DNA of 64,000 nucleotides. Source: a bacterium (lineage in GTDB: Bacteria; Cyanobacteriota; Vampirovibrionia; Obscuribacterales; JAKAZS01). The stretch is taken from assembly GCA_021815785.1 (NCBI GenBank), contig JAKAZS010000003.1, forward strand, positions 1,111 to 65,110, given 5' to 3'. Below are positions 19,906 through 64,000 of this stretch, in pieces (position 1 is the first letter of the stretch; each line of letters begins with the position of its first letter). A program made the position numbers and the translations under genes. The notes under the pieces were generated by a model. That model had not been told where the DNA came from, did not search any database, and saw only the letters and a program-made list of their open reading frames with translations.

Positions 19906-19974
19906 AGACTTAATGGTTCCCATCAAAAATAAACTATTAACTTAGGCCAAATATTACCTTAACTAGGAGAAAAA

Positions 19975-24367: not shown

Positions 24368-26559
24368 TTATGATACCAATTATTTAGACCGCTAAAATCA
24401 TTAACCTTAAAATGCAGGCCTATTTTAGTATTGATTAAATCATCTAAAATAGGCTTTTGCTTATTTGAATCCAGCGCAGGTGTCAAAGGTTTCAGTATTT
24501 CTGAATTCAAAGGATTTAGCCTCAACTCGGGCTTAGCTAAATTAGCAGGCATCGAATCATTTAACCAAGTATTTTCACGGATTAAATCAACTAAATCCGG
24601 ATCATTTAGTAAAGTCTTAGGGATCAATGAAGCCATAAGTTCCTGTTTGCCAATCGTAAAATAATTACCACCACCAATTTCTTTACCACCAAAATATTTA
24701 AGATAATAATAACTATAGGCTGGACTATGCAATATTGCTAATATCAAGCTCAAATCCAACTGCTTAGAAGTAATTAAAAATGTCTGAACCAAACCAGCAT
24801 ATTGCGAAAATTCATCAAAAAAGGCTTCGATTCTTTTGGTTAAACCGGCTAAAATTATTTTAGGCTGCAACTGATATTCCAATGAATTAAGCAGTGCTGA
24901 TGGTGATAAAGTAGCCAAATCAGGGGCTTTAGGAAATAAAAATTTTCTACCTAAAAACCGCGTTGTTTTTATCCCCCAATAATTAATATTTATATCAATA
25001 GATCCAGTAGTTAATAATTTTAGACCACAAGCATAATTGTCGTCAATAATTTTAGGTAGTAATTCATAAGCGGCCTTAGTTGACAGTCCAGCCTTTATAC
25101 TAGCTAAATCGCTTAATCTATAACAATCATCTAAGTTATGAATATTAAAACTTTCATTAAAACAAAATTGCCACCATGGCGTAAGTAATTTGATTTTTTT
25201 AGTAATTGAATTATTTAAATTGAAATCTTTAACAATCGTCAATTCATGTAATTCACTAGGTATAACTTTCTGACCTTGAATTATCGTCGTAAAAATAGTT
25301 GCATTATTAAATATATGGTTATTTTGAGGGATTATAATCATAGCTGGTGGAGCATATCTATTCAGGTAATCCTGAAGTTTGTAGGCACTTTTAGTAGAAA
25401 GAAATGCCTTGGGCAGAACAAATGCGTAATAACCATTATCCATTAACAAATTTTTCACACTCTGAAATACAAATAAATTAGCTTTATCATAAGGCCCATT
25501 GGTTATCTGGGGAAATTTTTCCTTATATAAAACATATTCAAATTTATTTCTACCAGTTTTTTTTTCAATTGCATTGCCATAAGGAGGATTACTCACAATT
25601 AAATTAAAACGCAGTGGAATATTATGCAGCGTTAAACTATCTAGATTAAGAATATTATTATTTAAAAAATTAATCGGGTAAGTTAAATCATCCAATTCGA
25701 GCCAAAAGTTAAGCTTACATAATTGTGTAGCTATCTCATTTATGTCAGCACCAAAAATTGACTTAAGCATAAATTGATAATATAAATCCTTACGGAATAA
25801 TTTGCCTTGTTCTTTAAAGTTTTTGGCCAAATTAAGGAGAATTTGACCATTACCACAACAAGGATCAAAAATGCGCATATTATCAATGCTAAATGATTGA
25901 AAACTTAATTTCGTGATATTTTTAGTTAGGCCATCCAGCATTAATTCCGGCGTATAAAATGCTCCCATTTTTTTACGTAATGGATTAGTATAGACAAGGT
26001 TCAACTTAGAATTCACCATTTCCATGCGTAAATTTAAAATCATTTCATATTGTATTGATAACTGATAAAACAAATGCTTAGTAAATGGCTGATTATTTTG
26101 ATTTAAACTTAGCTGTAATTTATTTATACCTTTAAGAATCAAACAAAAAAGTTTATTACTATCGGTTATAGCCTTTAGCCTCACTAAGTTATCGGGAATT
26201 AATATACCCATTAATAATTGTCGATTAAGCGAATTACCAATCAAATCATTAAATGTATTAATTAACAATTTATGGTCAAAATCCATAGTATCACCCAAAT
26301 CAAAGTGACTTAAATAATATTGATCCTGATCAGCTGCGTTATTAAGAATATAATCTCGAAAATTTATAATTTGCGGGCTTAGTAAATTTACAGCTGGTGA
26401 ATAAAACCAAAACACGTTTTGTAATATTAGTAAATAAATTTCTTTAATCAAATCAGCTGACCGCTCACTTGTCAAGCAAGATAAACTGTCGTTAGCCAAG
26501 CATAAATTTAGACTTGATTTAATAAGATCTAATAAATTTTGGTCAAATCGCTTGGACAT
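24364..26559 (-). CDS. Eco57I/TaqI-family N6-adenine DNA methyltransferase (gamma class), no recognisable nuclease domain
   Basis: 731 aa. GAFYTPELM, motif [34 protein letters not shown], motif [11 protein letters not shown]. The C-terminal ~330 aa is a presumptive target-recognition domain. Confidence 0.8.
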
Positions 26560-44121: not shown

Positions 44122-47100
44122 TTATACACCTTCACCAATTGGTGGATATATATCTTCGACCGCTTCTTCCTCGTCGCTAGGCAAAGTATGAGCAAAGAAC
44201 CCCGTTCCAGCGGGTATTAATCGACCAATGATAACATTTTCCTTAAGCCCACGCAACCAGTCTTTTTTACCTTCAACAGCGGCTTCGGTTAAAATACGGG
44301 TGGTTTCCTGGAAAGAAGCTGCTGAAATAAAGCTTTCGGTATTTAAACTAGCTTTAGTTATTCCCAGTAAAACATCATTATAAGTTGTATCAATCATACC
44401 AGCTTGTTTAAGTTTATCATTTTCCGCATCAATATAATACCTTTCTAATAATTCTCCAGGTAACAGAATTGAATCGCCCGGCTCATCAACTCTTATCTTT
44501 CGCGTCATTTGCTTAACAATAACCTCAATATGTTTATCGGCAATTTCCACACCTTGAGATCGATACACAGACTGAACCTCGTCGACAAGGAATTTCTGAC
44601 AGGCTTTAACACCTTTTAAACGTAAAATATCATGCGGATTAGGTGGTCCATCAGTTAAAGATTCACCAGCTTCAATCATTTCGCCATGTTCAACGACAAT
44701 ATTCAGACCTGGTGGTATCAATATCTCTTCTTGAGAATCATCCGCATAGACAATAAATAATTTATTGGTATTATCTTCTTGGACAATTTTAACCTTACCA
44801 CTACGTTCAGCTAAAATTGCCGATTCTTTAGGTTTTCTGGCTTCTAAAAGCTCTTCAACCCGTGGTAACCCTTGGACGATATCACCAGTTTTCTGACGCT
44901 CATAAAGCAGTGTAGCTAATAAATCACCACGTTGCACCAAAGCTGCATCTTCGCATTGCAATTGAGCATTAGCTGATATCAGGTAAGGTCGACCCCGACG
45001 AATTGTAACTTCATTATCTTCAATGCTTACAATTTGACCAGACACATTTGCTTTGACTTGCTTGTCAACCGTATCACCTTTTCTGACTAAATCATTTTTC
45101 TGCAAACTAGTATTACCCTTAATACTATGTTTAACCTGTTGATCCGGGGTAATCAGTAGAATACGACGCTCATCTGATTTGGACAGTTGCACACGGGCAG
45201 CTGTTTTGGTCAGCACTTGCGTAATCGCAATGGGACTGCCCGAATCAATTACCTGGCCATCTTCAACTTTAAGTAGAGTAATATTCAAATCACTGTCACG
45301 TCTAAGTAATACATTTTCCTGGACAACAATTCTTAATTCATCATCAATTTCCACAATACCTTTTAAATTAGCAAGATAGCCTTGCATATTTAAAACTAAT
45401 GACGTACGCGTAAGTTCGCAGCCATGGAATTTGCGAACTTTTTCGCGATCCTTGTACAATAATTGCGTTACTGGTCGTAAGGAAATTTTTTCATCGGTGG
45501 CATCATGTTTAAATTTAGTTTCTTTAGGACTAATAAAGTATTCCTGAACTGGCCTTAATACCAAGATCATTGAACCATCTTCCTTCTGGATGATATTAGC
45601 AACTTTCCTTTCGTTAGCTATCATATCCGTTATAATTTCCTGGCCCACTTCAACTAACTGACCATCATTTACCTTAATATCATAAGGATCATTAATAAAG
45701 ATGGGTTCACCAGGTCTAATGATTACTTCGTGAACAATATCATTATCAGCAATGATTTCAACAACACCATCCATGTGCGCAAACACATCTTTAACAATTT
45801 CCTGTCCAGCCGTTACTATATCTCCAGTTTCAGACATTTTTAAACTTATATCTTTAGATACGAAATGAACTTCTTCAGGAACAAAGAGTAAATTTCCTGG
45901 CTTAGTTATAATACGACGATCGTCAATTTCCACACCATCATAAAATATTTCGCCACCACTAGTTACAGCTGTTGATCCATCATCAACTAATTCAGCAACA
46001 ATTTTTCCATTTTCGACAATTTCATCATTAGCAACTTTAACAATATAAGTTTCTTCGGATTTTTTTACTTTCCAAACTGGGCCTTGCTTACCTACTTCTA
46101 ACTCAGCATTGTTAGCACCAACACTTGCGGTAACGACGTTAATTTCTTTGCCTTTAACCACTTTCTGAGTAGCCTTACCGTTAACTTTAACCGTTTCCGT
46201 TTCAATTTCTGAACCAAAACGAACTTGGCCACCATGTTCTACGGTAATAGTGATTTCAGCTAAAACATCACCAATTTTTACGTCTTGATCATCTTTAACG
46301 GTTAATTTAGCTCCAGTTGGTAAATTGTAAACGTCACCTTCTAGTACCCAAATTATGCCACTTTTGTTAGCAGTTCGCGATATATTACCTTGACGATCGC
46401 GTTTTTCATCAGCGGTAAAACTTTGAAATAAAATTCGACCAGAAATATCAGCAGTAATATCCTGGGTAGCTCTTTCAGTCAAATTCTTTTTAGCTCCGGG
46501 AGTATCAAATTCAGCAATAATTTCACCGCTTTCCACTTTAGTACCAGATTTTAATAACATCAAACTACCAACCGGAACATTAATAGTTTCTTCTTTAGTT
46601 TCATTTAATAATTTAACCGTACCTTCTTTCGTGGTCTGTTCAACTACGTCACCATAAGCAGTTCGAAAGGATCGACTCGGTATTTTATAACTTAAAGTCC
46701 CGTTAGCTGGAGCCTTAATCTGATTACGACCACCGCCACTAGCCACAGCTCCACCAGTATGGAAAGTTCTCATCGTTAACTGAGTACCAGGCTCACCAAT
46801 CGACTGAGCGGCAATAATACCAATAGCTTCACCAATATCGACCAATCGATTGGCCGTCATTGACCAGCCATAGCATTTTTGACATACCCCCCACTGACTG
46901 TCGCAGGTAAGCGCAGATCGTACCATAACTTCCGGCTTACTTTTAAGAAGGGTATCAAGACTAATTGATAGAATTCGGTTAATTAAAGTACCAGCAGTAG
47001 CAATAGTCTCACCTGTTTCGGGGTGGATAATGTCACAAGCCAAAGTTCTTCCATAGGCTCTTTCGGATAATTTCACAACGGCCTTGTCACCTTCCATAAT

Positions 47101-47793
47101 TGGCTTAACACTAATAAATTTAGTGGTACGGCAGTCTTTATCTTTAATAATAACATCCTGGGCAACATCAACTAATCGACGGGTCAAGTAACCACTATCA
47201 GCAGTTTTAAGTGCCGTGTCGACCAATCCTTTTCTAGCTCCATAACTAGAAATAATGTATTCAGTCACATTTAACCCTTCACGGAAATTGGTTTTAATGG
47301 GCAAATGGATAATCTTACCCTGTGAATCAGCCATCAGTCCGCGCATACCAACTAACTGACGCACTTGGGATAAATTTCCTCGAGCACCCGAAAAGGCCAT
47401 CATATATACTGGATTTAAACGGTCAAAATTATCGACAACATCTTTAGTCAACTGATCGGTTGTTGCTGACCAGGTATCAATTACTTTATTATAACGTTCA
47501 ACAGCCGTAATTTCGCCTAATTCATAACGTTTTTGCGCTGCTTCAACAACTTTTTCAGCTGCTGAAATTAAGCCTTTCTTACTTTTTGGTACATCCAAGT
47601 CATCAATCGATACCGTAACTCCAGCCTGGGTTGCATAATGGAAACCAAGGTCTTTAAGGGAATTAGCTAATTCCTGGGTTCGAGCCGTACCAAATTTTTC
47701 ATATACTTCCGCTAGAAATGAGCCTAATTCTTTTTTGCTCATAATTTTATTAATAAAGGGTATATGTTGTTTACTTTCTTTAGTTGATACCAT
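44122..47793 (-). CDS. rpoC2: DNA-directed RNA polymerase subunit beta-prime, C-terminal part (cyanobacterial-type RpoC2)
   Basis: 1223 aa. It begins at the trigger-loop/bridge region (MAFSGARGN, GLMADSQGK) and contains a large lineage-type insertion. It ends with the conserved GKKDWLRGLKENVIIGRLIPAGTG. Confidence 0.95.
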   Translation of the reverse strand: MVSTKESKQHIPFINKIMSKKELGSFLAEVYEKFGTARTQELANSLKDLGFHYATQAGVTVSIDDLDVPKSKKGLISAAEKVVEAAQKRYELGEITAVERYNKVIDTWSATTDQLTKDVVDNFDRLNPVYMMAFSGARGNLSQVRQLVGMRGLMADSQGKIIHLPIKTNFREGLNVTEYIISSYGARKGLVDTALKTADSGYLTRRLVDVAQDVIIKDKDCRTTKFISVKPIMEGDKAVVKLSERAYGRTLACDIIHPETGETIATAGTLINRILSISLDTLLKSKPEVMVRSALTCDSQWGVCQKCYGWSMTANRLVDIGEAIGIIAAQSIGEPGTQLTMRTFHTGGAVASGGGRNQIKAPANGTLSYKIPSRSFRTAYGDVVEQTTKEGTVKLLNETKEETINVPVGSLMLLKSGTKVESGEIIAEFDTPGAKKNLTERATQDITADISGRILFQSFTADEKRDRQGNISRTANKSGIIWVLEGDVYNLPTGAKLTVKDDQDVKIGDVLAEITITVEHGGQVRFGSEIETETVKVNGKATQKVVKGKEINVVTASVGANNAELEVGKQGPVWKVKKSEETYIVKVANDEIVENGKIVAELVDDGSTAVTSGGEIFYDGVEIDDRRIITKPGNLLFVPEEVHFVSKDISLKMSETGDIVTAGQEIVKDVFAHMDGVVEIIADNDIVHEVIIRPGEPIFINDPYDIKVNDGQLVEVGQEIITDMIANERKVANIIQKEDGSMILVLRPVQEYFISPKETKFKHDATDEKISLRPVTQLLYKDREKVRKFHGCELTRTSLVLNMQGYLANLKGIVEIDDELRIVVQENVLLRRDSDLNITLLKVEDGQVIDSGSPIAITQVLTKTAARVQLSKSDERRILLITPDQQVKHSIKGNTSLQKNDLVRKGDTVDKQVKANVSGQIVSIEDNEVTIRRGRPYLISANAQLQCEDAALVQRGDLLATLLYERQKTGDIVQGLPRVEELLEARKPKESAILAERSGKVKIVQEDNTNKLFIVYADDSQEEILIPPGLNIVVEHGEMIEAGESLTDGPPNPHDILRLKGVKACQKFLVDEVQSVYRSQGVEIADKHIEVIVKQMTRKIRVDEPGDSILLPGELLERYYIDAENDKLKQAGMIDTTYNDVLLGITKASLNTESFISAASFQETTRILTEAAVEGKKDWLRGLKENVIIGRLIPAGTGFFAHTLPSDEEEAVEDIYPPIGEGV

Positions 47794-47849
47794 TTTATTT
47801 ATCCTTCAAAATGTAGTTTAAAACGTTAATTTTTGCTTTAAGAACAAAG

Positions 47850-49664
<1,815 letters not shown>

Positions 49665-49720
49665 TTATAAATTAATAATTTTAGTGATACAGTCATAGTT
49701 AAAATGAGTTAAATAACAGG

Positions 49721-52700
49721 TTAAATTTCTTCAAATACATCAGCCGGAACAGGTTCTTCATCCAAAGGTGAAATTAATTCACTTAAAGGAATGTCGACTT
49801 CTTCTTCGAGTTCACCAGCTGGTGTTTCATCATCAACCGGGGTATTTAAATCATTATTATCAAGCAAATCACTGGCTTCGACAATCGATAAGCCCAGATC
49901 AACTTCATCTTCATCAACAATCAAGTCGGTATCACCCTCTTCAATTGCTCCACCCACTAGTTCAAAGCCAACAAAATCACTTGGGCTACCTTCAACGGAC
50001 CCCAACGATTTTAAACCCAGGTTAGCAATTTCTGAATCCAGGCCAATTTCGCCAAACGGACTTAAACGTTTCGGTGCTCTGGTTTTAACCTCTTCCACCT
50101 CAACCATTAAATCGACTTCAACTTCAGTACCATCTTTAGATTTTTTAGCTACCGTCACATCTAGACCAATGGACTGCAATTCGCGAACCAAAACCTTAAA
50201 AGATTCTGGTATTCCAGGTCGACGCAGATTTTCCCCTTTGACAATGGATTCATAAGCTCGAGATCGACCATTAACATCATCGGATTTAATAGTCAGCATT
50301 TCTTGAAGCGAATAGGCCGAACCAAAAGCTTCTAAAGCCCAACATTCCATTTCTCCTAGACGTTGACCGCCAAACTGAGCCTTACCACCAAGTGGTTGTT
50401 GCGTAACGAGCGAATAAGGACCAGTAGAACGAGCATGAATTTTATCATCAACTAAATGGACTAATTTCATCATGTAAATTTTACCAACCGATACTGGATA
50501 ATCAAAGCTTTCGCCAGTTCGACCATCATAAAGGGTTACTTTACCATCATCACCAATCCATTCGATATCATTCATTTCCTTGCCAGTTTTAACTTCGCCA
50601 TGAACGAATTTAGTTGAAGCTTCCTTATCATACATTTCATCAAATGGTGGCACTTCGTAAATCCGCCCGGTAAGCATAGCAGCCAAACCAAGCAAAGTTT
50701 CAAAAGTCTGTCCGACGTTCATCCGACTTGGTACACCCAGAGGATTTAAAACAATATCCACCGGACTACCGTCAGGTAAAAATGGCATATCTTCAACTGG
50801 TAGAATTCTTGCCACAATCCCTTTGTTACCATGACGACCAGCAACCTTATCTCCCACACTTACCTTACGTTTTTGGGCGACATATACGCGCACTACTTTA
50901 TTGGATACGGGGGGCAATTCATCACCTTTGTCACGATCAAAGACCTTAACATCAACGACTCTGCCACCTTCACCATGGGGTACACGTAAAGAATTGTCTC
51001 TAACGTCACGAGCTTTTTCACCAAAAATTGCCCGCAGTAACTTTTCTTCAGGCGGATGTTCAGATTCGCCTTTTGGTGTTATTTTACCAACCAGAATATC
51101 ATCAGGATAAACCCTAGATCCAATTCGAACGATACCATTTTCATCAAGATGGCGTAAAGATTCTTCTGACACATTAGGAACTTCACGGGTAATTTCTTCG
51201 GGTCCTAATTTTGTTGATCGAGCATCACTTTCAAGTTTTTCAATATGGATTGAAGTTAAGATGTCATCATAAACCAATCTACGACTAATCAAAATTGCGT
51301 CTTCAAAATTGTACCCTTCCCAAGGCATAAAAGCTACAAGCAGATTACGCCCAACCGCTAATTCACCACTATTAGTAGCAGCTCCATCGGCGATAATTTG
51401 CCCAGGGACTACTGCCTGGCCTACTTCAACAAAAGGTTTTTGATTTAAACAGGTGTCTTGGTTAGATCGCTGAAATTTAGATAAATTATATCTAATCAAA
51501 TGACCTTCATCATTACGAATATGAATCGTGGTAGCTGAAACATATTCAACAATACCTTTGGTTTTAGAAAGTAAAACCATCCCAGAATCTCGAGCAGCAT
51601 GTCGTTCAATACCAGTAGCAACAAGAGGACGTTCAGTGCGCACCAATGGCACTGACTGCCGTTGCATGTTCGATCCCATAAGCGCTCTATTGGCATCATC
51701 ATGTTCCAAGAAAGGAATAAGTGCAGTTCCAACAGAAATAATCTGAATCGGACTTACCCCTACATAATCAACTTGATCTGGTGGGGCTTCAATAAATTCA
51801 GCTTTATAACGAACTGGTACTAATGGAGTCAAAAATTTACCATCTTTGTCAACCGTTACATCACCAGGAGCTACCCTATAATTATCTTCTTCATCAGCAG
51901 TTAAATATTCAACTTCTTTACCAACAATTCCATTAATAACTCGATGATATGGTGTTTCAATAAAACCATACTCATTAACCCTGGCATGGGTAGCCAGTGA
52001 ACCAATTAAACCGGCATTTGGGCCTTCTGGCGTTTCCACCGGACAAATGCGACCATAATGGGATGGATGAATATCGCGAACAGCAAAACCAGCTCTTTCG
52101 CGAGACAACCCACCTGGTCCCAAAGCTGATAGTCTTCGTTTATGGGTCAATTCAGCCAAAGGATTAGTTTGATCCATGAATTGTGATAACTGGGAAGAAC
52201 CAAAAAATTCTCGAATTGCTGCTACCAGTGGTTTTGTATTCAGCAAATTAGCTGGTGTAAGCGAATCGGCATCCTGTAAAGTCATCCGTTCACGCACAAT
52301 ACGTTCTAGACGAGATAAACCTACTCTAAACTGATTTTGTAATAATTCACCCACGCAACGGATCCGACGATTGCCTAAATGATCAATGTCGTCAACTTGA
52401 CCTTCGTCATAGTTTAAACCTATTAAATAATCGATTGAAGCAACAATGTCTTCACGAGTTAAAGTTCGGGTAGTTTCGGAAATATTTAGCCCGAGTTTTT
52501 TATTCATTTTATAGCGGCCAACTTTGCCTAAATCATAGCGCTTATCATCAAAGAAACGACTATCAATTATACTTTGACCGCCAGCTACTGAAGGTGGATC
52601 CCCTGGTCGTAATTTGCGATAGACTTCAATTAATGAATCATCTCTAGTTTTAGTTGAATCCTTGTCAAAGGTTTTTTTCAGAAATTCATGATGTCTAAAC

Positions 52701-53332
52701 ATCCCTTCCATTTCTGAATCAGTGTAGCCTAAAGCCCTTAAAAGAGTAGTTGCTGGAAGTTTACGATTTTTATCGATTTTGACATAAATAACATCATTAG
52801 TATCAGTTTCAAATTTAAGCCAAGCACCTCGATTAGGAATCAAAGTAGCCGAAAACGTTCGTTTACCATTTTGATCAATTTCACGTTTGTAATAAATCCC
52901 TGGACTACGGACAATCTGACTAACTACAACCCGTTCAGCTCCATTAATAATAAAGGTACCGCGATCCGTCATCATCGGAATATCGCCTACATAAATTTCC
53001 TGTTCCTTAATATCACCAATTTCACGGTTGACTAAACGCATTTGAATTCGTAGCTTTTTGGTAAAGCTAGACTCCATTATCCTAGCCTCTTCAGCTGTCT
53101 TAGGCTTGTTGGGCTCAGTATGTTCATCAAATGAATAAGAAGGTAAAAAATGTAATTCTAATCGTCCTGTATAATCTTTAATTGGACTAAAGGCCTTAAG
53201 TTCTTCACCTAAACCTTCACGAACAAACCACTGATACGAACTTTTTTGAATTTCAGCTAAATCTGGAAGATCTGCAATATGAGTACTGCCGACCCCAAAG
53301 GTTCGGACGCGCTCGATTAATTTTGATGTCAT
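49721..53332 (-). CDS. rpoB: DNA-directed RNA polymerase subunit beta with a long acidic C-terminal tail
   Basis: 1203 aa. Conserved blocks [66 protein letters not shown]. About 144 residues follow [17 protein letters not shown]. Confidence 0.95.
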
Positions 53333-53644
53333 TGATATCCCCTATGAACAAACAGCTAGCTAATCATGCCCTTGGTGTTGGTATGCAAATTGAAATAGAT
53401 ACAAACATATGGATTATTAATTCTAAATCCTTTTTATAAAGATTTGGGCTTTTGACATAGGTATGTTGACATTTATTAGATAAATTTTTTCTCAGAATCT
53501 GTATATTCAATAAATATAAGGATTTTATTCTAAATAATTATTAAATATATGAACAACACAATTTAACATTTGCGTTAAAATATTTATATATTGTTAAATA
53601 GATAGTAATTTTTTTTGCTTTCGTATTAATTGTATTGTTTTTAT

Positions 53645-53738
53645 GGGGATAGCTCTTTACTGGTGTAAGGCTCGGTCTTCAAAATCGATGTTGGAACAAA
53701 AATTCCAGGATGGGTTCAATTCCCATCTATCCCCGCCA
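53645..53738 (+). tRNA. selC: tRNA-Sec (selenocysteine, anticodon UCA), CCA encoded
   Basis: Reading 5' to 3': GGGGATAG (acceptor 5' strand), CT, CTTTAC-TGGT-GTAAGG (D arm), C, TCGGT-CTTCAAA-ATCGA (anticodon arm), TGTTGGAACAAAAATTCCAGG (variable arm), ATGGG-TTCAATT-CCCAT (T arm), CTATCCCC (acceptor 3' strand), G, CCA. This gives an 8-bp acceptor stem, a 6-bp D-stem with a 4-nt loop, an anticodon loop identical to E. coli selC, a long variable arm and a 5-bp T-stem, i.e. the bacterial 8/5 Sec fold. 94 nt. Confidence 0.92.
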
Positions 53739-53763
53739 TTATTAAAAGCTACAGCATTGTCTA

Positions 53764-53873
53764 GGTTTAATTCCCATCTATCTACCTGCTACCTGCTACC
53801 TGCTACCTGCTACCTGCTACCTGCTACCTGCTACCTGCTACCTGCTACCTGCTACCTGCCCGCCATTATTAAA
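53764..53873 (+). repeat. partial duplicate of the tRNA-Sec 3' end plus 8 nt of 3' flank, interrupted by a heptamer array (att-like scar)
   Basis: GGTTTAATTCCCATCTATC [array] CCGCCATTATTAAA compares with GGTTCAATTCCCATCTATCCCCGCCATTATTAAA at 53713-53746. There is one substitution, and a 76-77-nt insertion sits inside the C-run of the acceptor 3' strand. Confidence 0.85.
53783..53859. repeat. 11 perfect tandem copies of the heptamer TACCTGC
   Basis: Counted directly: 77 nt with no variant units. Confidence 0.95.
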
Positions 53874-53912
53874 TTATTTATAAAATTTAAAGAATTTAGC
53901 GCCGAAAAAATT

Positions 53913-53941
53913 TTGACAGAATACATTAAATTGTATTAATA
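53913..53941 (+). promoter_or_regulatory. candidate sigma70-type promoter for the Xer-like recombinase gene
   Basis: TTGACA (53913-53918), a 17-nt spacer, then TTAATA (53936-53941). Read by eye only. Confidence 0.35.
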
Positions 53942-53960: not shown

Positions 53961-54917
53961 CTGATAAATTTTCAAAAGGTTTTAAATATAATTACAAAAT
54001 CCCATTACCATAATTTATTATCTGAATTTTCAGCATATTTACTATATGAACGTAATTATTCTGATAAAACCGTTACGGCCTATTGTCATGACGTAATTGA
54101 TTTTATCAACTTTACCTATCCCAACTTTACTGACACTATCGATAATGAAAATTTTTATACGAGCAATTTGGCTAATTTAACGATTAATGACATTAGAATG
54201 TATTTAAATCAATTGCGGCAAAATTACGGCAAATCAAGTTATGCCCGCAAATTATCTTCATTAAAAAATTATTTTAATTATTTAGTTCGAGGCAAAAAAC
54301 TAGCCCATAACATCTTTAAAGAAATTAAGACGCCTAAATTAAACCGAAAATTACCATTACTTTTAAATAAAAATGAAATTGACAAACTAATAAAAGCCTG
54401 TGAGAAAGAAGAATTTGGCTTAAGGGACCAAGCACTTATTGAAGTTCTTTACGCTTCAGGAATTCGGGTTAGTGAATTAGTCAATTTAAAAGTTACTGAT
54501 TATAACAAATCACAACTAGAACTTATTGTATTTGGCAAAGGCGCAAAAGAAAGACTTGTCTTACTAACGAATGAGGCCAAACAAAGTCTGGAAAAATATC
54601 TTACTTGTTTGCGCCCTCGACTGTTACAAAACCCTGCTCAGACAGCATTATTTGTCAACAAATATGGCAATAAACTTACAACCAGAAGTATTGAGCGTTT
54701 AATCAAGAAATACAGCAAATTGGCCAAGTTGTCAAAGGTGGTATCACCCCATACCTTAAGACATTCATTTGCCACACATTTACTTGAAGGTGGAGCCGAT
54801 TTACGGGTAGTTCAAGACCTTTTAGGACATGCTTCAATTAGTACCACGCAAATATACACTCATGTGTCATTGGATCGCCTGAAAAGAATTCATAATTTAT
54901 ACCACCCACGCGCTTAA
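53961..54917 (+). CDS. XerC/XerD-like tyrosine recombinase; the N-terminal core-binding domain lies upstream of the track's TTG start and has no canonical start codon
   Basis: C-terminal catalytic domain ASGIRVSELVNL, HTLRHSFATHLLEGGADLRVVQDLLGHASISTTQIYTHV, ends HPRA. The frame stays open back to 53955 and encodes LLSEFSAYLLYERNYSDKTVTAYCHDVIDFINF (SAM-like N-domain motif). No ATG, GTG or TTG occurs in frame between 53955 and 54167. Candidate starts are CTG 53961, ATA 53988 and ATT 53991, the last two with AAGG 8-11 nt upstream. Confidence 0.75.
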   Translation: MINFQKVLNIITKSHYHNLLSEFSAYLLYERNYSDKTVTAYCHDVIDFINFTYPNFTDTIDNENFYTSNLANLTINDIRMYLNQLRQNYGKSSYARKLSSLKNYFNYLVRGKKLAHNIFKEIKTPKLNRKLPLLLNKNEIDKLIKACEKEEFGLRDQALIEVLYASGIRVSELVNLKVTDYNKSQLELIVFGKGAKERLVLLTNEAKQSLEKYLTCLRPRLLQNPAQTALFVNKYGNKLTTRSIERLIKKYSKLAKLSKVVSPHTLRHSFATHLLEGGADLRVVQDLLGHASISTTQIYTHVSLDRLKRIHNLYHPRA

Positions 54918-56648: not shown

Positions 56649-58037
56649 ATGCGTAATATTCCTGATATTAATTCACTGTTAAATCACCCTCAATTATCGG
56701 GCAAATTAAAGCAAAACCTCTTAGCTAAATTAATTCGACAACAAATTAACATTTTAAAAGAAACATCTAAGGACAGTCTTAATTTAGCTGTTGACAAGAA
56801 TGAAAGATCGCTATTGACAAAAAAAATCATTACCGGGGTTTTAAAAGACGTCGAAAAATTAACTAATTATAATATTAAAAGGGTGATAAATGGCAGTGGG
56901 GTAATTTTAAATACTAATTTAGGCCGTTCCCCAATACCCCAAACCGTTGTTGAATATCTAAGTCAAAACCTAAACGCCTACCTTGATTTAGAAGTAGATA
57001 TCGAATCTGGTAAAAGAATTGAACGAACCCATAATGCTGAAAATTTATTGAAATTTTTAACCGATGCCCAAAGTTGTCTTATTGTGAATAATAATGCTGC
57101 AGCACTTACCCTAATTATTAACACATTTTCGCTTAATAAAGATGTAATTATTTCCCGAGGGGAATTAGTCGAAATTGGTGGCAATTTTCGCTTACCCGAC
57201 ATTATTGAGGCTTCCGGTGGGATTTTAAAAGAAATTGGCAGTACGAATAAGACTAAAATTACTGACTATGAAAAAGCTTTAAACAATGAAACTGGCTTAA
57301 TTTTAAAATGCCACAAATCTAACTTTAAGGTTTTAGGTTTTACCCAGGATGTTGATTTGTTAAGTATTAATCAACTAAAACGTAAAATTCCTTTAGTCTA
57401 TGATCTTGGTAGTGGTATTTTTGAAGGCTATTTAGACGTTAAACAAACAATGCCAATCAATGACTTTATCATCAACGCTAAAATGCTCCAACATCTTGAC
57501 CTGCTCTGCTTTTCTGCAGACAAACTACTAGGTAGTTTACAAGCCGGAATTATTTTAGGTAAGGAGAAATACATAAACAAACTTAGGATTAACCCACTTT
57601 ACCGTTCTTTGCGGCTAGACAAAGTATCAATTATGATTTTAGAAAAATGCCTGCAACTTTACCTTAAACAAGAATCCTTTGATGAGTTTCCGGGTTTAAA
57701 AGTCTTAAATATCGACAAAACCAATTTAAAGTCAACAGTACAGAATTTTATCAATTGGCTCAAACCTGAAATTAACTCGCTAATACTTAGACCTATTGAA
57801 ACGCAAGCAATTCTAGGTGGTGGTAGTATAAGCGACCTTAAACTTGATAGTTACGGATTAATTATTGAGTCAATGAAAAACCTTACCGCTAATTCTCTTA
57901 ATAAGTTTTTTCGCTTAAGCAAACCAGCCATAATTGGCCAAATTCAACACAATCAATATATAATTGACTTTGCGACTTTATTAAATGATGACTTGACTTA
58001 CCTAGCAAAGGCGATAAAGGAACTTGATTTAAGTTAA
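56649..58037 (+). CDS. selA: L-seryl-tRNA(Sec) selenium transferase SelA
   Basis: 462 aa. The PLP-lysine region LLCFSADKLLGSLQAGIILGKEKYINKLRINPLYRSLRLDK parallels E. coli SelA [20 protein letters not shown]...HPLKRALRADK. The N-terminal IPDINSLLNHP fits, and the length matches. Confidence 0.9.
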   Translation: MRNIPDINSLLNHPQLSGKLKQNLLAKLIRQQINILKETSKDSLNLAVDKNERSLLTKKIITGVLKDVEKLTNYNIKRVINGSGVILNTNLGRSPIPQTVVEYLSQNLNAYLDLEVDIESGKRIERTHNAENLLKFLTDAQSCLIVNNNAAALTLIINTFSLNKDVIISRGELVEIGGNFRLPDIIEASGGILKEIGSTNKTKITDYEKALNNETGLILKCHKSNFKVLGFTQDVDLLSINQLKRKIPLVYDLGSGIFEGYLDVKQTMPINDFIINAKMLQHLDLLCFSADKLLGSLQAGIILGKEKYINKLRINPLYRSLRLDKVSIMILEKCLQLYLKQESFDEFPGLKVLNIDKTNLKSTVQNFINWLKPEINSLILRPIETQAILGGGSISDLKLDSYGLIIESMKNLTANSLNKFFRLSKPAIIGQIQHNQYIIDFATLLNDDLTYLAKAIKELDLS

Positions 58038-58530: not shown

Positions 58531-58572
58531 AAAAGTAGCCAAGTTAACTAATTAGTTAATATGGCTACTTTT
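58531..58572. terminator. bidirectional terminator hairpin between convergent genes
   Basis: AAAA-GTAGCCA-aGTTAACTAatTAGTTAAta-TGGCTAC-TTTT. The 3' arm overlaps the stop codon of the 771-aa gene. Confidence 0.55.
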
Positions 58573-60880
58573 GTAATAAGCGTTTTCGTCTTTCTACTTC
58601 AGCCTCAACTTCTTCAACTGAAATCGCATTTAAAGTCATTGGGCCAACACAGGTTTCTTTCCACGGTTGTCCTTCGAGTGCTTGTCGAACAATAACCTCA
58701 AATACCTGAGACCGTATACCAGTTCCATAATTACCAGAACCAAGCCCCCCTCCAGATACTGTAGTACTTCCGGCTTTTTTATAACTGAAATCATAAGTTG
58801 AAGCTTTATTCCCTTGCGCCAAACTAGGCATTTGATTAGCCGTTGAGGCTCCTGGCGATACTAAAGGGTTAACTGTTGGATTAGGAGTATTAAGCGCAAA
58901 GGCTGGATTACTTTCCTTAACTACCGGTTGATTCGGATTTAAAACTGGAGCAGTAATTTTTGGAGTTTGATTAACAGTTTGTTTGGCAATTACATTGTTT
59001 TGTTCTAATAAACCAGTCTGAACTGGCTTGTCAAACATTGGCCGAGCCGGACCGCTATCAAACAGTGATGGTGAATCTTCATCTACGGGGTTAGCATCAA
59101 AAAAACCCGGCTCAATAGTTTGTGCCTTATTTTCGGGCTTAAATAACGGTTTAGCCGGTTGGTTATTTTGAGCCACTACATTATCAGTTTTAACTGGCTT
59201 AATGTTAGCCTGAAGACTTTGGGTGGGGTTAGCTTTTAAATTTTGAATTTCATGTTGTAAATTTGCTGATTCAGTAGCTGATTTACTTAATTCTGATTGA
59301 AGATTAGTTATCATATCCTTATATTGATCCTTTAATTCTTCAATTTGAGCTTTGAGCTGGTTAACTTCCATGGTTTTATTCGATAATTCGTAGTCCTTAT
59401 TTTGTAAAATACTATCTTTTTCTACCAGTATTGAACTTTGATCATTAAATGAGTTATTTAATTCCGAAAATTTATTATTGAGATCTTCAAATTTGATTCT
59501 TAATTCATCACTGCCTTCAGCTAATTCTTGATCACGAATATTTAACTGTTCATTTAACAATTCTTCTTGTAATAATAAATTTTCCGTAAGCTTAGCATTG
59601 GCCTGTTTTAATTCATCAAGTTCTTTAAGTATTTTCGGATTTGGCATTGATTCAAATTGACCTGAGTTATTAACCGGCCCAGTCGATTGAACTGCATCAT
59701 AAGCCGCTCGAAACAAATTTCCGGCCAAACGTTGAGTACCCAAAAGTTCAACTAACCGATGTAATAAGTCAGCTGGATGATCATCAGGAAAAATTGACGT
59801 ATAAGCACATTTAAATGTCCAGGGATCAATTAAACCATTAGATAATTGATCTGCCAAATTAGTAATTAATTCATCAGGGGTAAATTTATTCTGATTATAC
59901 TGTTCTTGATCTAATTTGGAGTCAATAGCCGAAACTAGTTCGGATATAGCTGGAACCAATTCACCAACGGCTTGAAGTGGTTCTAATGCAGCTCCCAAAG
60001 AATCAATCAGAACAGTTAGGTTAACACCTAATTCACCAAGAGAATTAACATTAGAATTACTTTTGGTTTCAATAAACTCCTTAATCATATGATGAATTTG
60101 AGCAATATTGGTCGCACAAACATCGACGCCAAGATCAAGATTTTGAATTATGGCTAAAGTATCTTGACTTAATCCAGGATCATTTTTGAAGATTTCTTTT
60201 TCATCTTTATTAACAATTTCTGGAGATTTTTCCGTTGAATTGCCTTTATTTTTAGTCTTAACTGATTTAGTTGAAACATTATTAGAATTTACACTGGCAT
60301 TTTTTGAATTACTTTCAAGGTTAAAATTCAAACTTGCGTCATCTAAAACTAAATCTTCATGATTGGACAATGTTGGGGTTTCCTTATTAAATGTTAGATT
60401 TTGGGGAACAGTTTCTTCATGGTCAAAAATTTCATTATTAGCTAGATCTAAAGCCAATTCAGGACTAACAGTAATAACGTTTTGAGTCTTATGGTCAATT
60501 TGATAATTATTCATAGGATCTAAATTATCATCAAAAATGTTATTGACAATAATTTCATTAGTTTGGGATTCCAGCTGATTAAAAGTTGCTGGTTCAGCTG
60601 GATAATCAGTTGACTGGTTATAACTAACTTGTTGATTTGACACATTTTGCTGATTGTCAACTTGACTACTATTGCTTTGACCATTATTATTAGGATTATT
60701 GGCTGCTATATTTTGATTAACGTTAGCTCCAGCTGTACTCGGAAAAACGGCTAAACCAAAAGGGTCAGAAGACACAGCCTGTTTAGTTAATGTACCTCGA
60801 AGCCGAGCGCGGCGTTGAGCTAAAGATTCAGACTCATTGTTAGCTTTTGCTGATTGTCGATTATCTTCATTTGCTACCAT
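58565..60880 (-). CDS. hypothetical N/Q-rich protein with a long central coiled coil
   Basis: 771 aa. Disordered N/Q/S-rich N-terminal third, a helical middle and an extended heptad-like region (ELDELKQANAKLTENLLLQEELLNEQL...QLKAQIEELKDQYKDMITNLQSEL). A P/N-rich segment and a short conserved-looking C-terminus follow. Confidence 0.65.
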   Translation of the reverse strand: MVANEDNRQSAKANNESESLAQRRARLRGTLTKQAVSSDPFGLAVFPSTAGANVNQNIAANNPNNNGQSNSSQVDNQQNVSNQQVSYNQSTDYPAEPATFNQLESQTNEIIVNNIFDDNLDPMNNYQIDHKTQNVITVSPELALDLANNEIFDHEETVPQNLTFNKETPTLSNHEDLVLDDASLNFNLESNSKNASVNSNNVSTKSVKTKNKGNSTEKSPEIVNKDEKEIFKNDPGLSQDTLAIIQNLDLGVDVCATNIAQIHHMIKEFIETKSNSNVNSLGELGVNLTVLIDSLGAALEPLQAVGELVPAISELVSAIDSKLDQEQYNQNKFTPDELITNLADQLSNGLIDPWTFKCAYTSIFPDDHPADLLHRLVELLGTQRLAGNLFRAAYDAVQSTGPVNNSGQFESMPNPKILKELDELKQANAKLTENLLLQEELLNEQLNIRDQELAEGSDELRIKFEDLNNKFSELNNSFNDQSSILVEKDSILQNKDYELSNKTMEVNQLKAQIEELKDQYKDMITNLQSELSKSATESANLQHEIQNLKANPTQSLQANIKPVKTDNVVAQNNQPAKPLFKPENKAQTIEPGFFDANPVDEDSPSLFDSGPARPMFDKPVQTGLLEQNNVIAKQTVNQTPKITAPVLNPNQPVVKESNPAFALNTPNPTVNPLVSPGASTANQMPSLAQGNKASTYDFSYKKAGSTTVSGGGLGSGNYGTGIRSQVFEVIVRQALEGQPWKETCVGPMTLNAISVEEVEAEVERRKRLLQK

Positions 60881-61004: not shown

Positions 61005-61033
61005 TTGACATTAACATGCCTGGTGGCTATTAT
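61005..61033 (+). promoter_or_regulatory. near-consensus sigma70-type promoter upstream of the giant ORF
   Basis: TTGACA (61005-61010), a 17-nt spacer, then TATTAT (61028-61033), about 145 nt upstream of ATG 61177. Confidence 0.45.
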
Positions 61034-61176: not shown

Positions 61177-64000
61177 ATGTTAGTTTTTAATATTTGTCAT
61201 AATTGTGGAAATTCTAAAGTTGTTAGCGGTCAACCATGTTTAAACTGTGGTGAAATAATTTCAAAATTTTCAGCCACTGAATTACCTAGTCCACTAATTA
61301 TTTTTCAGCCTCTAAATATCAATTTAACCTTAGACTTATCCTTAAGCGAAAAAGTGTTAACTAATATCCGTTTTAAAAAACTAATAGCTGATAATAACAA
61401 ACCTAATCCAAACGTTACCCAAGAAACAAATAACAGTATTAGCCAAATTGCGGATACGGATCCAACCCGTAATCAACCAAAACCAGAAGCTCTAACTTTA
61501 TTTAATGAAGAAAATATTTTAGATAATGACTTAAACTATCGCAACAAAGACCAAATAGCTCCACTAAATGGTCCTAGTTTGTTTGAAGATGATAATGACC
61601 TGAGTTACCCAAACAATGTAACAGTAGATATTAATAAATCAATTCAGCCGAGCAATTCGCCTAGTATTCATAATTTTCAACCCAGTCAATTGCCAATACC
61701 TAATAATGTAGCGTCAACCAGTGTAAAGAATGATAAATCTGAACCATCTCTGGAAAAACTAGTTGAGGACTTAACGCTTAGTTTAAATAACATGTTGACG
61801 GCCAATGAAGCAAAATCTGATTTACCACAAAATAATCTTAATGAATCAACACAGCAACGTGAATTTGGCCAGTTAAATAATCCGTCAGTTAACGAGTCAA
61901 CACAGCAACGTGAATTTGGTCAGTTAAATAATCCGTCAGTTAACGAGTCAACACAGCAACATGAATTTGGCCAGTTAAATAATCCGTCAGTTAACGAGTC
62001 AACACAGCAACGTGAATTTGGCCAGTTAAATAATCCGTCAGTTAACGAGTCAACACAGCAACATGAATTTGGTCAGTTAAATAATCCGTCAGTTAACGAG
62101 TCAACACAGCAACATGAATTTGGTCAGTTAAATAACAATTCAAGTTCAGACCCAAAACAAAATATCGACAATACCAACCAATCAAAGTTAAACAATGACG
62201 CTCAAGATCAACAAAAAGAATCTCCCATAGATACCCCTACAAAACCTAACAATAATACCAGTCAAACCAAGGATACCGTTTCAAGTAACACTTTAAATTT
62301 ACTAAATTTTGATTTTAATCCTATTCCCCAAGAATCACCAACTAAAGCCCAAACACCAAATACCAATAAAACAAATACCCAGACTGATTATAAGCCCGAA
62401 ACATCTAAAGGCTTTGATGATTTTCCCAGCTTGGCTGAATTAAATACAACTTCAACTTCTATTCGATCCGATAATTTAAAACCTAAGAATTTTGTAAAAC
62501 AAGCCCAAAACAATCTTAAACATGCTCAAACTAATGACGAAGAAGACGATGATGATGAAAATTTTGATTACAATCACCCTGTAAAAGCCAAATCCGGTAA
62601 ACCTTCTGCCAAGAAAAAAAGTACTTATAATGACACCGAAAATGATCCTGATGATGATCCCCCGAAATTTAAATTACGTAAATTCTCCACTAAAAATATC
62701 CCTGATGACGGTGAAGAAGAAGGAGAAGAAGAAAACATTTCCCCGAAACACAAATTACGTAAATTCTCGACCAAAAACAAAATAAGCAATAATGGTTCTG
62801 ATGATGATGATGATGAAAGCGAAGATAATGAAAAGACTATTATTAAAGGCAATGCAAAATCTCCAAAATCAAAAAGTAAAAAAGCTAAAGATAGCTTAGA
62901 TACAGATGAAGACAATGACAATGTTAATTTATTCAATCGCCAAATTAACATTTTAGGAATATCGCTACCACTAACAACGATATTAATTATCGGCTTTTTT
63001 GGCCTGTTTATTTTCTGGCAACTAGTAAGTGGTATTGGTTCAATTGTTGGCGGATTAGGTTCAGTTGGCAGCAACCTTAATATTATGAGTAATAATAATA
63101 CACCTTCATTAAGTGGAGCCTGGAAATTTGTAGCTGTAGCTCAAGGTCAAAAATGTGAAGGTTATTTTAATCTAGAACAAAGTAATAATCAAATAGCTGG
63201 TGACGGTCGCGATAATAATGGCAATTTTGAAATTATTGGAACTTTTACGCCTCCTAATAAAATTAATTTCGTAAAAAAATATTATGTAAACGGTCAAGAA
63301 GTATTTAAACCAGTAAATTTTGATGGCTTAATCAATTTCGAACAGAATCCGCTTTACGTTCAAGGTTCGTTTAATGTGACTTTCCGCCAAAATTATGGCT
63401 GGCGTGGTCATCCGGTTACTGTTGTTGGACAGTGGGAAGGTATTTTAGCTAAGCCAATGAATAATCAGGTAACCGATAATGCCCGTTTTAATAAAGTCCA
63501 TCATATTCAGTCAACCGGCTTTAATCCCCTTAACAATTTAACTAATTCTTTTACCTATGCAGCAGTTGGTGGTATAGGATTAGCCGTATTTTTAATATTT
63601 TATTCGATACATTTATTTGGGCCAAATGGAAAAATTCAAATTTCTGAAAAACAACGTTATGTTACTTCCCAGTTTAAATCACAACATATAAAAATGTTAA
63701 AAGAAATGAGTGCCCCTTATAAAATTGGTGGCTTATCTTTAGGAACACGTTGTGAGTGGAAATTCTTTAAATTCTGGGAAATTAAAGAATTGGCTTTTAC
63801 TCCAAAAATCCGTGACAAAAACCCTCACTCACTAATTCTGGGCACAGCCAATAAAGGTAAAACCAGGTTGGTTGCCAATTTCATAACGCAGGATATTCTA
63901 GCCAAAGATCGCGCAGTTGTCGTCATCGATTCAGACGGTGGTTTAGTTGATTTAATTTCACAATGGATTGCTTCTCATGAAAAAGGAAAAACTATTGCCA
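61177..64000 (+). CDS. large membrane-anchored P-loop NTPase (type IV coupling protein / HerA-FtsK-like) with an N-terminal zinc ribbon and repeat-rich arm; 3' end beyond the window
   Basis: Not in the ORF track. I read every codon from ATG 61177 to nt 64000 and found no stop. CHNCGNSKVVSGQPCLNCG; 6 x 17-aa repeats; two TM helices (about 62950-63020 and 63555-63620); Walker A LILGTANKGKTRLV followed by AVVVIDSDGGLVDL. Confidence 0.85.
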   Translation, partial: MLVFNICHNCGNSKVVSGQPCLNCGEIISKFSATELPSPLIIFQPLNINLTLDLSLSEKVLTNIRFKKLIADNNKPNPNVTQETNNSISQIADTDPTRNQPKPEALTLFNEENILDNDLNYRNKDQIAPLNGPSLFEDDNDLSYPNNVTVDINKSIQPSNSPSIHNFQPSQLPIPNNVASTSVKNDKSEPSLEKLVEDLTLSLNNMLTANEAKSDLPQNNLNESTQQREFGQLNNPSVNESTQQREFGQLNNPSVNESTQQHEFGQLNNPSVNESTQQREFGQLNNPSVNESTQQHEFGQLNNPSVNESTQQHEFGQLNNNSSSDPKQNIDNTNQSKLNNDAQDQQKESPIDTPTKPNNNTSQTKDTVSSNTLNLLNFDFNPIPQESPTKAQTPNTNKTNTQTDYKPETSKGFDDFPSLAELNTTSTSIRSDNLKPKNFVKQAQNNLKHAQTNDEEDDDDENFDYNHPVKAKSGKPSAKKKSTYNDTENDPDDDPPKFKLRKFSTKNIPDDGEEEGEEENISPKHKLRKFSTKNKISNNGSDDDDDESEDNEKTIIKGNAKSPKSKSKKAKDSLDTDEDNDNVNLFNRQINILGISLPLTTILIIGFFGLFIFWQLVSGIGSIVGGLGSVGSNLNIMSNNNTPSLSGAWKFVAVAQGQKCEGYFNLEQSNNQIAGDGRDNNGNFEIIGTFTPPNKINFVKKYYVNGQEVFKPVNFDGLINFEQNPLYVQGSFNVTFRQNYGWRGHPVTVVGQWEGILAKPMNNQVTDNARFNKVHHIQSTGFNPLNNLTNSFTYAAVGGIGLAVFLIFYSIHLFGPNGKIQISEKQRYVTSQFKSQHIKMLKEMSAPYKIGGLSLGTRCEWKFFKFWEIKELAFTPKIRDKNPHSLILGTANKGKTRLVANFITQDILAKDRAVVVIDSDGGLVDLISQWIASHEKGKTIA
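61843..62148 (+). repeat. six tandem 51-bp units inside the giant ORF
   Basis: Unit GAGTCAACACAGCAACGTGAATTTGGCCAGTTAAATAATCCGTCAGTTAAC encodes ESTQQ(R/H)EFGQLNNPSVN. Units start at 61843, 61894, 61945, 61996, 62047 and 62098. As read, differences are essentially CGT/CAT and GGC/GGT, plus the edges of the first and last units. Confidence 0.95.

Follow-up and report, generated by a model that had tools for sequence, protein, structure and literature searches.

What is an ATPase resembling the coupling proteins of conjugation doing among the housekeeping genes of a bacterial chromosome? This question arises at the end of a 64,000-nucleotide (nt) stretch of contig JAKAZS010000003.1 from the Obscuribacterales assembly GCA_021815785.1, hereafter called the window, where an open reading frame (ORF) on the plus strand runs from an ATG at position 61177 to the window edge at 64000. 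Coupling proteins are the substrate gatekeepers of conjugation and of effector secretion. Our analysis makes it likely that the gene starting at 61177 encodes an ATPase of the inner membrane, 1309 amino acids (aa) long, that belongs to the type IV coupling protein (T4CP) superfamily, is fixed in the chromosome of the Obscuribacterales and works outside conjugation. It probably serves as one of two ATPase motors in an uncharacterised machine.

A first-pass annotation of the window, made from the sequence, had proposed that this ORF of more than 940 codons is real in spite of its absence from the ORF list, and this proved correct. Translation of 61177–64000 yields 941 codons with zero stops up to the window edge, and the chance of an equally long stop-free run at 33% guanine-plus-cytosine (GC) content is ~1e-32, as estimated from base composition. 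The gene went unlisted because the ORF lister leaves out ORFs that run off the source, as had been supposed. The antisense ORF at 62625–63074 was rejected as a gene; it is the compositional shadow for which it had been taken, that is an S/L/F-rich mirror of acidic and lysine-rich codons. An exact-match search of genome contigs with the window end returned nothing, and the complete locus was reached on public contigs via the neighbouring 771-aa protein. P0378, a protein of 1309 aa encoded on a 66,468-nt NCBI contig, is identical to the window protein over its first 941 residues and ends in a stop. The window ORF thus represents the first 941 codons of a real and complete 1309-codon gene, whose end is predicted ~1.1 kb past the window edge. 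Orthologs on sister contigs measure 1241–1275 aa in L002–L004 and L007 (1241 aa in L002 and 1275 aa in L004), while the copy in L001 is broken by a scaffold gap. Exact look-up of the 90%-identity cluster around the window protein returned alleles of 1241, 1275, 1292 and 1309 aa. All modules that had been named along the protein were found, in the order and at the places described.

A scan of species-representative genomes yielded 108 relatives, the best 80 of which were kept, corresponding to 79 distinct loci; the family gene counts given below derive from our own ORF calling and clustering on these kept loci. The relatives reside essentially all in metagenome-assembled genomes labelled Obscuribacterales, Obscuribacteraceae or Melainabacteria, the closest species representative being 'Candidatus Melainabacteria bacterium clean1587' (L007). 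Region-by-region comparison of the window gene with L007 gave ratios of nonsynonymous to synonymous substitution rates (dN/dS) of 0.06 for the zinc-ribbon module (residues 1–75), 0.195 for the arm that follows it, 0.17 for the two transmembrane helices with their intervening barrel, and 0.007 for the linker and ATPase. As values range from 0.007 to 0.195 across all regions, the whole ORF, including its low-complexity arm, is maintained as coding sequence.

The assignment of the protein rests on its C-terminal block. Within the window, this block comprises the juxtamembrane linker and the start of the T4CP-like ATPase (63619–64000, plus strand), with a Walker A motif (GTANKGKT, residues 889–896; 63841–63864) and a VVIDSDG strand (AVVVIDSDGG, residues 913–922; 63913–63942), which aligns with VIVDPNGD of TrwB. 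The Walker B motif (LYLDEFD, residues 1152–1158 of P0378), read from the full-length sequence, and the all-alpha insertion of the ATPase lie past the window edge. Residues G855, G860, K861 and D1121 (L004 numbering) are invariant across 13 family members. The first-pass annotation had compared the block with VirD4/TraD-type coupling proteins and related HerA/FtsK-like ATPases and had named profile hidden Markov models (HMMs) with which to check this. Among these, TrwB_AAD_bind (PF10412) recognized the full-length protein with 24.4 bits against a cut-off of 20.5, whereas T4SS-DNA_transf, DUF87 and FtsK_SpoIIIE gave no match; the in-window fragment, which includes the segment around Walker A, reached 15.3 bits with PF10412, which is under the cut-off, and matched TraD models below threshold as well. 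Neither the window protein nor the full-length protein was matched by PF01935 (DUF87) or PF05872 (HerA). PF01580 (FtsK_SpoIIIE) did not match either, and the best FtsK-type chain in the PDB (E 0.0014) aligned at the P-loop alone. A single-sequence phmmer search against the PDB returned no matches, and a word-indexed homolog search with the in-window C-terminal fragment returned none as well, the full domain from a sister contig being needed. A family profile that combined family members with distant relatives, in contrast, detected TrwB in the PDB with an E value of 7.5e-9 and DotL with 6e-5, and the Walker A, VxxDxxG/DxxG and Walker B regions were aligned.

Structure prediction points in the same direction. 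In the AlphaFold2 (AF2) model of the homolog P0001, the ATPase is predicted with a per-residue confidence (predicted local distance difference test, pLDDT) above 94, and helices 448–582 are inserted between the core strands. Foldseek searches with this ATPase gave the best target-normalised template modelling (TM) scores with TrwB (0.60–0.67), followed by the C-domain of DndH/DptH (0.64), Cag-beta (0.53–0.57), DotL (0.51) and HerA (0.49); the alignments of HerA with the model had root-mean-square deviations of 17–20. By its predicted fold, the protein thus belongs to the T4CP superfamily, whose family profiles it reaches marginally, and the earlier view of the C-terminal block as a P-loop ATPase of the coupling-protein kind is borne out by the PF10412 match, the TrwB profile hit and the TM scores. 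When invariant alignment columns were mapped, 32 of 57 fell to residues 926–1046 (L004 numbering), which correspond to the helical insertion of the model. This clustering suggests that the insertion contacts a conserved binding partner.

Ahead of the ATPase, two transmembrane helices occupy residues 592–614 (62950–63018) and 795–814 (63559–63618), confirming the two helices that had been read from the sequence. Both emerged from a hydropathy scan of the family and from the models, in which the first is a long helix, and nearly all family members have two such helices in front of their ATPase. The segment between them had been described as a beta-rich loop domain; it is indeed beta-rich, but instead of a mere loop it forms a defined barrel according to AF2 and Foldseek. 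That is, the model of window residues 590–820 displays two long helices around an eight-stranded up-and-down beta barrel of the avidin/streptavidin type (residues 645–760; 63109–63456), the barrel itself having a pLDDT above 90. The top 50 matches of the barrel in a Foldseek search of the PDB were all avidin-family structures, with E values down to 1.2e-4, target-normalised TM scores of 0.47–0.76 and sequence identities of 9–16%. The pattern G-x-W ... G-x-G-x-D-x-x-G-x-F is conserved across the family. The barrel shares with avidin-family proteins (rhizavidin 3EW2, hoefavidin, afifavidin) its size, its eight strands and a similar G-x-W in the first strand; it differs from them by its low identity, by the lack of a match of the window protein to the Pfam avidin model at E values up to 1, and by its insertion between the transmembrane helices of an ATPase. 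We found no description in the literature of a barrel between two transmembrane helices of an ATPase. Judged by topology the barrel would face the periplasm, because the charged, cysteine-bearing N-terminus and the ATPase are both cytoplasmic. Barrels of the avidin and calycin type generally serve to bind ligands.

The N-terminus carries a zinc ribbon, CHNCGNSKVVSGQPCLNCG (residues 7–25; 61195–61251), which lies inside a conserved 75-residue module and has the form CHNCG-x10-CLNCG in the window protein. The corresponding CxxC(G)-x10-CxxC pattern is present at about residue 6 in 77 of the 79 complete family members; Pfam zinc-ribbon models matched neither the window protein nor the full-length protein. 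The ribbon is followed by a cytoplasmic arm of low complexity (residues 26–591; 61252–62949), recognized by the composition of its ~570 aa: 15% N, 10% S, 16% D plus E, 8% K, and zero W or C. Arms of 130–1000 aa are found in all family members, with lineage-specific sequences, and that of the homolog P0001 was modelled at a pLDDT below 50. The arm is fast-evolving and disordered, yet under purifying selection. Its motifs LLNFDFNPIP (62299–62328) and GFDDFPSL (62410–62433) are conserved in the nearest relatives only. Motifs considered as common to the arms of the whole family (LLNFDF, GFDDFP, LSEKVL and K-x-K-L-R-K-F) had to be rejected, as they are confined to the three closest lineages.

The six 17-aa repeats and the two K(F/H)KLRKFSTKN motifs that had been reported from the arm are both present. 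The repeats form a tandem array of 51-nt units, six copies of NESTQQ(R/H)EFGQLNNPSV at 61838–62135, for which Tandem Repeats Finder gives a period of 51, 5.8 copies and 96% matches. The unit number is 2, 4, 5 or 6 in near-identical assemblies of this species, and the allele lengths follow it; L007 has an array of four 16-aa units. The repeat count is uncertain, because contigs break or carry gaps within the array (one assembly has an N-gap here and two contigs end inside), and part of the copy-number variation may be an assembly artefact. The basic motifs KFKLRKFSTKN (62665–62697) and KHKLRKFSTKN (62746–62778) start at residues 497 and 524, and acidic runs flank both. The two are kept in L007 and one similar copy (KPKLRSFSAKTN) occurs in L008; none was found in more distant family members.

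How widespread is this architecture? It had been noted that no coupling-type ATPase with such a zinc ribbon and arm in front had been described. We likewise found no description of the architecture or the family in the literature; the arm is, however, not peculiar to this gene. Homologs retaining it were sought, and the zinc ribbon and arm turned out to be the rule in a family of ~100 genes in the Obscuribacterales. The common layout consists of the zinc ribbon, an arm of 130–1000 residues, the first transmembrane helix, a loop of ~200 residues and the second transmembrane helix, with the Walker A motif ~95 residues further on. An exhaustive profile search recovered ~70 clusters (50% identity) that span barrel and ATPase, many of them with 1000–1500 aa. 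Beyond these, scores drop sharply to relatives that share the ATPase only, 1150 of which have E values below 1e-30. Distant relatives with 25–29% identity match TrwB_AAD_bind, T4SS-DNA_transf and TraG-D_C over the whole ATPase and form a bridge between the family and classical coupling proteins. The nearest ATPase-only outsiders (P0320, P0331, P0330, P0323, P0339) carry a Ser/Thr kinase, an HTH_17 domain or a duplicated ATPase; more precisely, P0320 and P0331 have an N-terminal Ser/Thr protein kinase and P0330 a C-terminal HTH_17. Their sequences suggest that a T4CP-derived ATPase clade has been reused in several non-conjugative architectures. Within the family itself, 16 of the 47 orthologous loci, meaning those with enough flanking sequence, have two or three T4CP-like paralogs in tandem, each with its own zinc ribbon (including L009, L010, L015–L018, L024, L030, L031, L040, L052 and L058). 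A further paralog type of 860–930 aa is found in a different conserved context (L042, L055, L066, L070, L075, L083), next to a TonB-C-terminal protein and a 1477-aa parallel beta-helix protein.

The genomic setting is that of a core gene. The order rlmB–selA–[86 aa]–[771 aa]–gene is conserved in ~50 species-level loci, and the GC content of the gene is like that of its surroundings in a genome of ~33% GC. Otherwise the window is occupied by housekeeping genes, that is rpoB/C, selA, rlmB, tRNA-Sec as well as two-component, metabolic and methylase genes. VirB/Tra partners had been expected beyond the window, if anywhere; instead, the 5.7 kb downstream of the gene encode an M1 aminopeptidase between two tetratricopeptide repeat (TPR) proteins. 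Components of a type IV secretion system (T4SS) or a relaxase were detected neither among the annotated ORFs of the window, 10 large ones of which were scanned, nor in these 5.7 kb. The neighbours that recur across the 80 loci, as far as annotated, are a HerA-like ATPase and proteins without a known family, with no VirB protein or relaxase among them. A plasmid search produced matches in 19 of 72,556 records, all with at most 25% identity, and 17 of these are on non-mobilizable plasmids. Across the Obscuribacterales, the gene resides in the chromosome and is passed on vertically.

A second ATPase usually accompanies the gene. In 45 of the 47 orthologous loci it is followed, co-directionally and at a median gap of 112 nt, by a gene for a soluble HerA-like ATPase of 1067 aa (typified by L047, 12312–15509, plus strand), which has a Cys-rich C-terminal region and matches HerA/DUF87 profiles weakly. 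This protein is 75–88% identical order-wide and far more conserved than the product of the T4CP-like gene ahead of it. The only two loci without it, L007 and L008, both belong to the window's own clade, and HMMs of the three usual downstream neighbours detected nothing in the window, L001–L004, L007 and L008. An ortholog of the HerA-like protein (P0235, 60% identical) is nevertheless encoded on another contig of GCA_027405755.1 (L086, 10001–13204), the genome that holds the window's locus. The ancestral cluster has therefore been split, with both ATPases kept. At its new location, the HerA-like gene adjoins ARC6-like, Peptidase_M23 and giant (6341-aa) beta-helix-like genes; the latter was considered as the giant gene usual for the cluster (see below) and rejected, since it is not homologous.

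In the usual arrangement, a ~200-aa protein comes past the HerA-like gene and is followed on the opposite strand, convergent to the ATPase cluster, by a giant low-complexity protein of 1500–2000+ aa, which is present in ~50 loci (L047, 16109–22180, minus strand). This protein combines G/T/A/N-rich tandem repeats, a coiled coil, LysM-like segments and a conserved C-terminal domain, and it carries a CxxC-x10-CxxC zinc ribbon resembling that of the ATPase. In L008, the next-closest lineage, two genes without a known family (~730–750 aa and 185–205 aa) form an inverted duplication behind the ATPase gene (14313–20028), so that each occurs on both strands; no Pfam matches were obtained for them. On the other side of the T4CP-like gene, the divergent 771-aa protein (58565–60880, minus strand) is adjacent in 55 of the 80 related loci. 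It has a disordered N-terminus, a coiled coil and a conserved C-terminal module, measures 700–840 aa family-wide, and had no match in Pfam, NCBIfam or PADLOC. Its conserved adjacency suggests that it may be a partner.

How could such a protein work? By homology to TrwB, the ATPase would assemble into a hexameric ring on the cytoplasmic side of the membrane and use ATP to thread or hand over a polymer, which might be DNA, nucleoprotein or an unfolded protein. The anatomy of the protein suggests that the zinc ribbon on its flexible arm serves as a tethered module that catches substrate or a partner, and that the periplasmic barrel provides a binding site for a small ligand or for a partner in the envelope. 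Gene order further suggests that the protein acts together with the soluble HerA-like ATPase, in the manner of VirD4 with VirB4 or of CedD with CedB. More speculatively, and we offer this as a tentative possibility, the T4CP-like ATPase, the HerA-like ATPase, the 771-aa protein and the giant protein with LysM-like segments and zinc ribbon might constitute an unrecognised, chromosomally fixed two-ATPase envelope machine of the Obscuribacterales, in which the zinc-ribbon tether would recruit cargo and the barrel would attach the motor to the outer membrane or the wall. Such a machine could be a new secretion or DNA-exchange system, either a bacterial counterpart of the archaeal Ced system or a T4SS-derived remnant.

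Several observations speak against this account. The PF10412 match covers profile positions 12–146 of 387 only, PF02534 (T4SS-DNA_transf) does not match the full-length protein, and the TraD model of NCBIfam (TIGR03754) scores 28 bits versus a cut-off of 647.55, the match lying around Walker A. The ATPase fold was predicted on the homolog P0001, which is 66% identical over the ATPase, and not on the window protein; the TM score with TrwB is moderate, and the C-domain of DndH/DptH is similar at 0.64. In some family members the glutamate of Walker B is replaced by N, D or Q. Concerning the second ATPase, its adjacency could be inherited rather than functional, because the whole region is syntenic in the lineage, and this adjacency is broken in the very lineage to which the window belongs.

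These weaknesses leave room for other readings, the most obvious of which is an ordinary conjugative coupling protein that belongs to a plasmid or an integrative and conjugative element, its T4SS and relaxase lying just past the window. Profile matches (PF10412, TrwB) and fold of the ATPase resemble those of a T4CP, relatives bear the NCBI label 'type IV secretory system conjugative DNA transfer family protein', and an ORF for a XerC/D-type tyrosine recombinase is located 6 kb upstream. The context, however, largely refutes such an origin, which we regard as very unlikely: TPR and aminopeptidase genes take up the 5.7 kb downstream, none of the 10 large ORFs scanned in the window is a T4SS component, the same housekeeping neighbours recur in ~50 species-level genomes, VirB and relaxase are missing from the annotated recurrent neighbours of the 80 loci, the few plasmid matches are remote and mostly on non-mobilizable plasmids, and the GC content does not deviate. 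Practically no credence can be given to the idea that the arm is untranslated, with a product starting near the first transmembrane helix, or that the ORF is a decaying pseudogene. It might be prompted by the many database entries of relatives with only 600–820 aa, by the repeat-bearing, low-complexity nature of the arm and by the lack of an obvious Shine-Dalgarno sequence before the ATG at 61177. It is refuted by the zinc ribbon, which in 77 of 79 complete genes lies near residue 6 of the longest possible ORF, and by the dN/dS values of ribbon module and arm; moreover, the frame of the arm is open in every ortholog, many gene calls in the exhaustive search have 1000–1500 aa, and among the short entries some bear the label partial or stem from contigs of very small size.

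A different kind of alternative assigns the protein to sensing or to defence. As a transmembrane sensor or regulatory ATPase, it would perceive a ligand or envelope signal through the barrel and thereby control the ring, with the arm scaffolding downstream partners. The barrel is well folded and conserved, as would suit a ligand-binding domain, and the fusion of second-tier ATPase relatives to a Ser/Thr kinase (P0320, P0331) or HTH (P0330) suggests that the ATPase clade occurs in signalling-type architectures. We nonetheless think a sensor unlikely, given that the complete T4CP-type core is kept with the all-alpha insertion as its most conserved part, that the usual neighbour is a second ATPase of the ring-translocase type, and that ligand-binding residues were not identified in the barrel, which the avidin Pfam model leaves unmatched. 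A role in anti-phage defence or DNA surveillance, built on HerA/DptH-like ATPases, would explain the similarity to the DndH/DptH C-domain (7es4: E 9e-5, TM score 0.64) and the matches of the HerA-like neighbour to the PADLOC models HerA and mad8 (1e-8 to 6e-12). It appears improbable when set against the behaviour of the locus, which is fixed beside housekeeping genes across the order instead of residing in variable islands; purifying selection on the ATPase is extreme (dN/dS 0.007), and the order-wide conservation of its HerA-like partner is unlike that of fast-turnover defence genes. The protein itself had one marginal PADLOC match (mad8, E 0.001, 16.6 bits) and no PHROG match, and no nuclease, Sir2 or methylase is among the annotated neighbour families.

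The preferred reading, a chromosomal T4CP-superfamily motor working outside conjugation, can be specified further by comparison with known systems. With TrwB of R388, VirD4, TraG and TraD, the protein shares a two-helix membrane anchor before the ATPase, here preceded by the cytoplasmic arm, as well as a P-loop ATPase of the RecA-like type that has both Walker motifs and the VxxDxxG strand; the model also predicts that an all-alpha domain interrupts the ATPase core. This family also provides the best match in both sequence profile and fold. Unlike its members, the protein is encoded by a vertically inherited chromosomal gene outside any T4SS, relaxase or mobile-element context at the loci examined; ~590 residues of zinc ribbon and disordered arm precede its first transmembrane helix, a loop of ~180 residues with a beta barrel replaces the short loop of classical coupling proteins, and its profile scores are far under the family-equivalog cut-offs. 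In T4CPs the all-alpha insertion is described as the variable, substrate-binding part, whereas here it is the most conserved part of the protein. New with respect to described coupling proteins are thus the zinc ribbon with its arm, the avidin-like barrel, and the fixed chromosomal, HerA-linked setting.

The crenarchaeal Ced system offers a precedent for the proposed pair of motors, as it is a chromosomal, non-conjugation DNA-import system with VirD4-like CedD and VirB4-like CedB (PMC11823120). Both settings combine a chromosomal, membrane-bound VirD4-like ATPase with a second ATPase of the FtsK-HerA superfamily, and weak cross-matches to NCBIfam models exist between the window protein and CedB (E 0.013–0.018) and between the HerA-like partner and CedD (8.5e-15). 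These scores are nonetheless remote from the cut-offs, with 13.6–14.2 bits versus 700 for CedB and 54 versus 600 for CedD. CedA- or pilin-like genes were not seen among the neighbours, the host organisms are bacterial and have an envelope of the Gram-negative type, the partner is a soluble protein of 1067 aa, and the Ced proteins are devoid of the zinc-ribbon arm and the periplasmic barrel, both of which the window protein has. HerA, FtsK/SpoIIIE and the type VII secretion protein EccC share the ATPase superfamily of the window protein, in which hexameric ring motors are expected, and EccC and FtsK are likewise anchored by N-terminal transmembrane helices. In contrast to HerA and FtsK, the window protein has no Pfam match to DUF87, HerA_C or FtsK_SpoIIIE, and TrwB fits better than HerA; in contrast to EccC with its three ATPase domains it has one, and it lacks the gamma domain by which FtsK binds its orienting polar sequences (KOPS).

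The locus documents a branch of the coupling proteins that has left mobile elements and is now a core, vertically inherited gene of a whole order of non-photosynthetic relatives of the cyanobacteria. This branch has gained three modules so far undescribed in coupling proteins, and a second ring ATPase usually accompanies it. Should the two indeed drive export or DNA exchange, they would represent a new envelope machine in a phylum-level lineage without a cultured model, and would help to follow the reuse of T4SS ATPases in other roles. For annotation, the lesson is more immediate: on these genes, the label of a type IV secretory conjugative DNA transfer protein is no evidence of conjugation.

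Regarding expression of the gene, a near-consensus promoter had been pointed out at 61005–61033. The pattern as such is there, with TTGACA and TATTAT on the plus strand separated by 17 nt (11 of 12 consensus matches), ~140 nt 5' of the ATG and within the divergent intergenic region shared with the minus-strand gene for the 771-aa protein; in L007 both hexamers are identical and the spacer is altered, and in L008 the region is unalignable. It is not distinctive, though, as the region contains 5 promoter-type sites compared to 4.0 +/- 2.4 in shuffled sequence. A clear Shine-Dalgarno sequence was not evident ahead of the ATG at 61177.

A few further features of the window deserve mention. The 442-aa ORF at 959–2287 was considered as kin of an equally long downstream TPR gene and rejected, the two being unrelated. 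An Eco57I-like N6 DNA methylase of 731 aa is encoded at 24364–26559 (minus strand), and an 831-aa ORF at 29669–32164 (plus strand) had no Pfam match. The genes rpoB, rpoC1 (gamma) and rpoC2 at 44122–53332 (minus strand) display the split rpoC of the cyanobacterial arrangement; rpoC1 scores 954 versus an NCBIfam cyanobacterial cut-off of 1117, which fits a Melainabacteria-type relative. The XerC/D-type tyrosine recombinase ORF mentioned above (54168–54917, plus strand) comprises 249 aa with a TTG start, and its profile match sets in at position ~40–50; translation may therefore really begin further upstream, or the gene may have lost its N-terminal part. Finally, a tRNA-Sec gene with anticodon TCA (53645–53738, plus strand) lies 3 kb from selA (56649–58037, plus strand), and for this reason the organism probably uses selenocysteine. 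The 98-aa ORF at 53643–53939, which overlaps the tRNA gene, is probably spurious.

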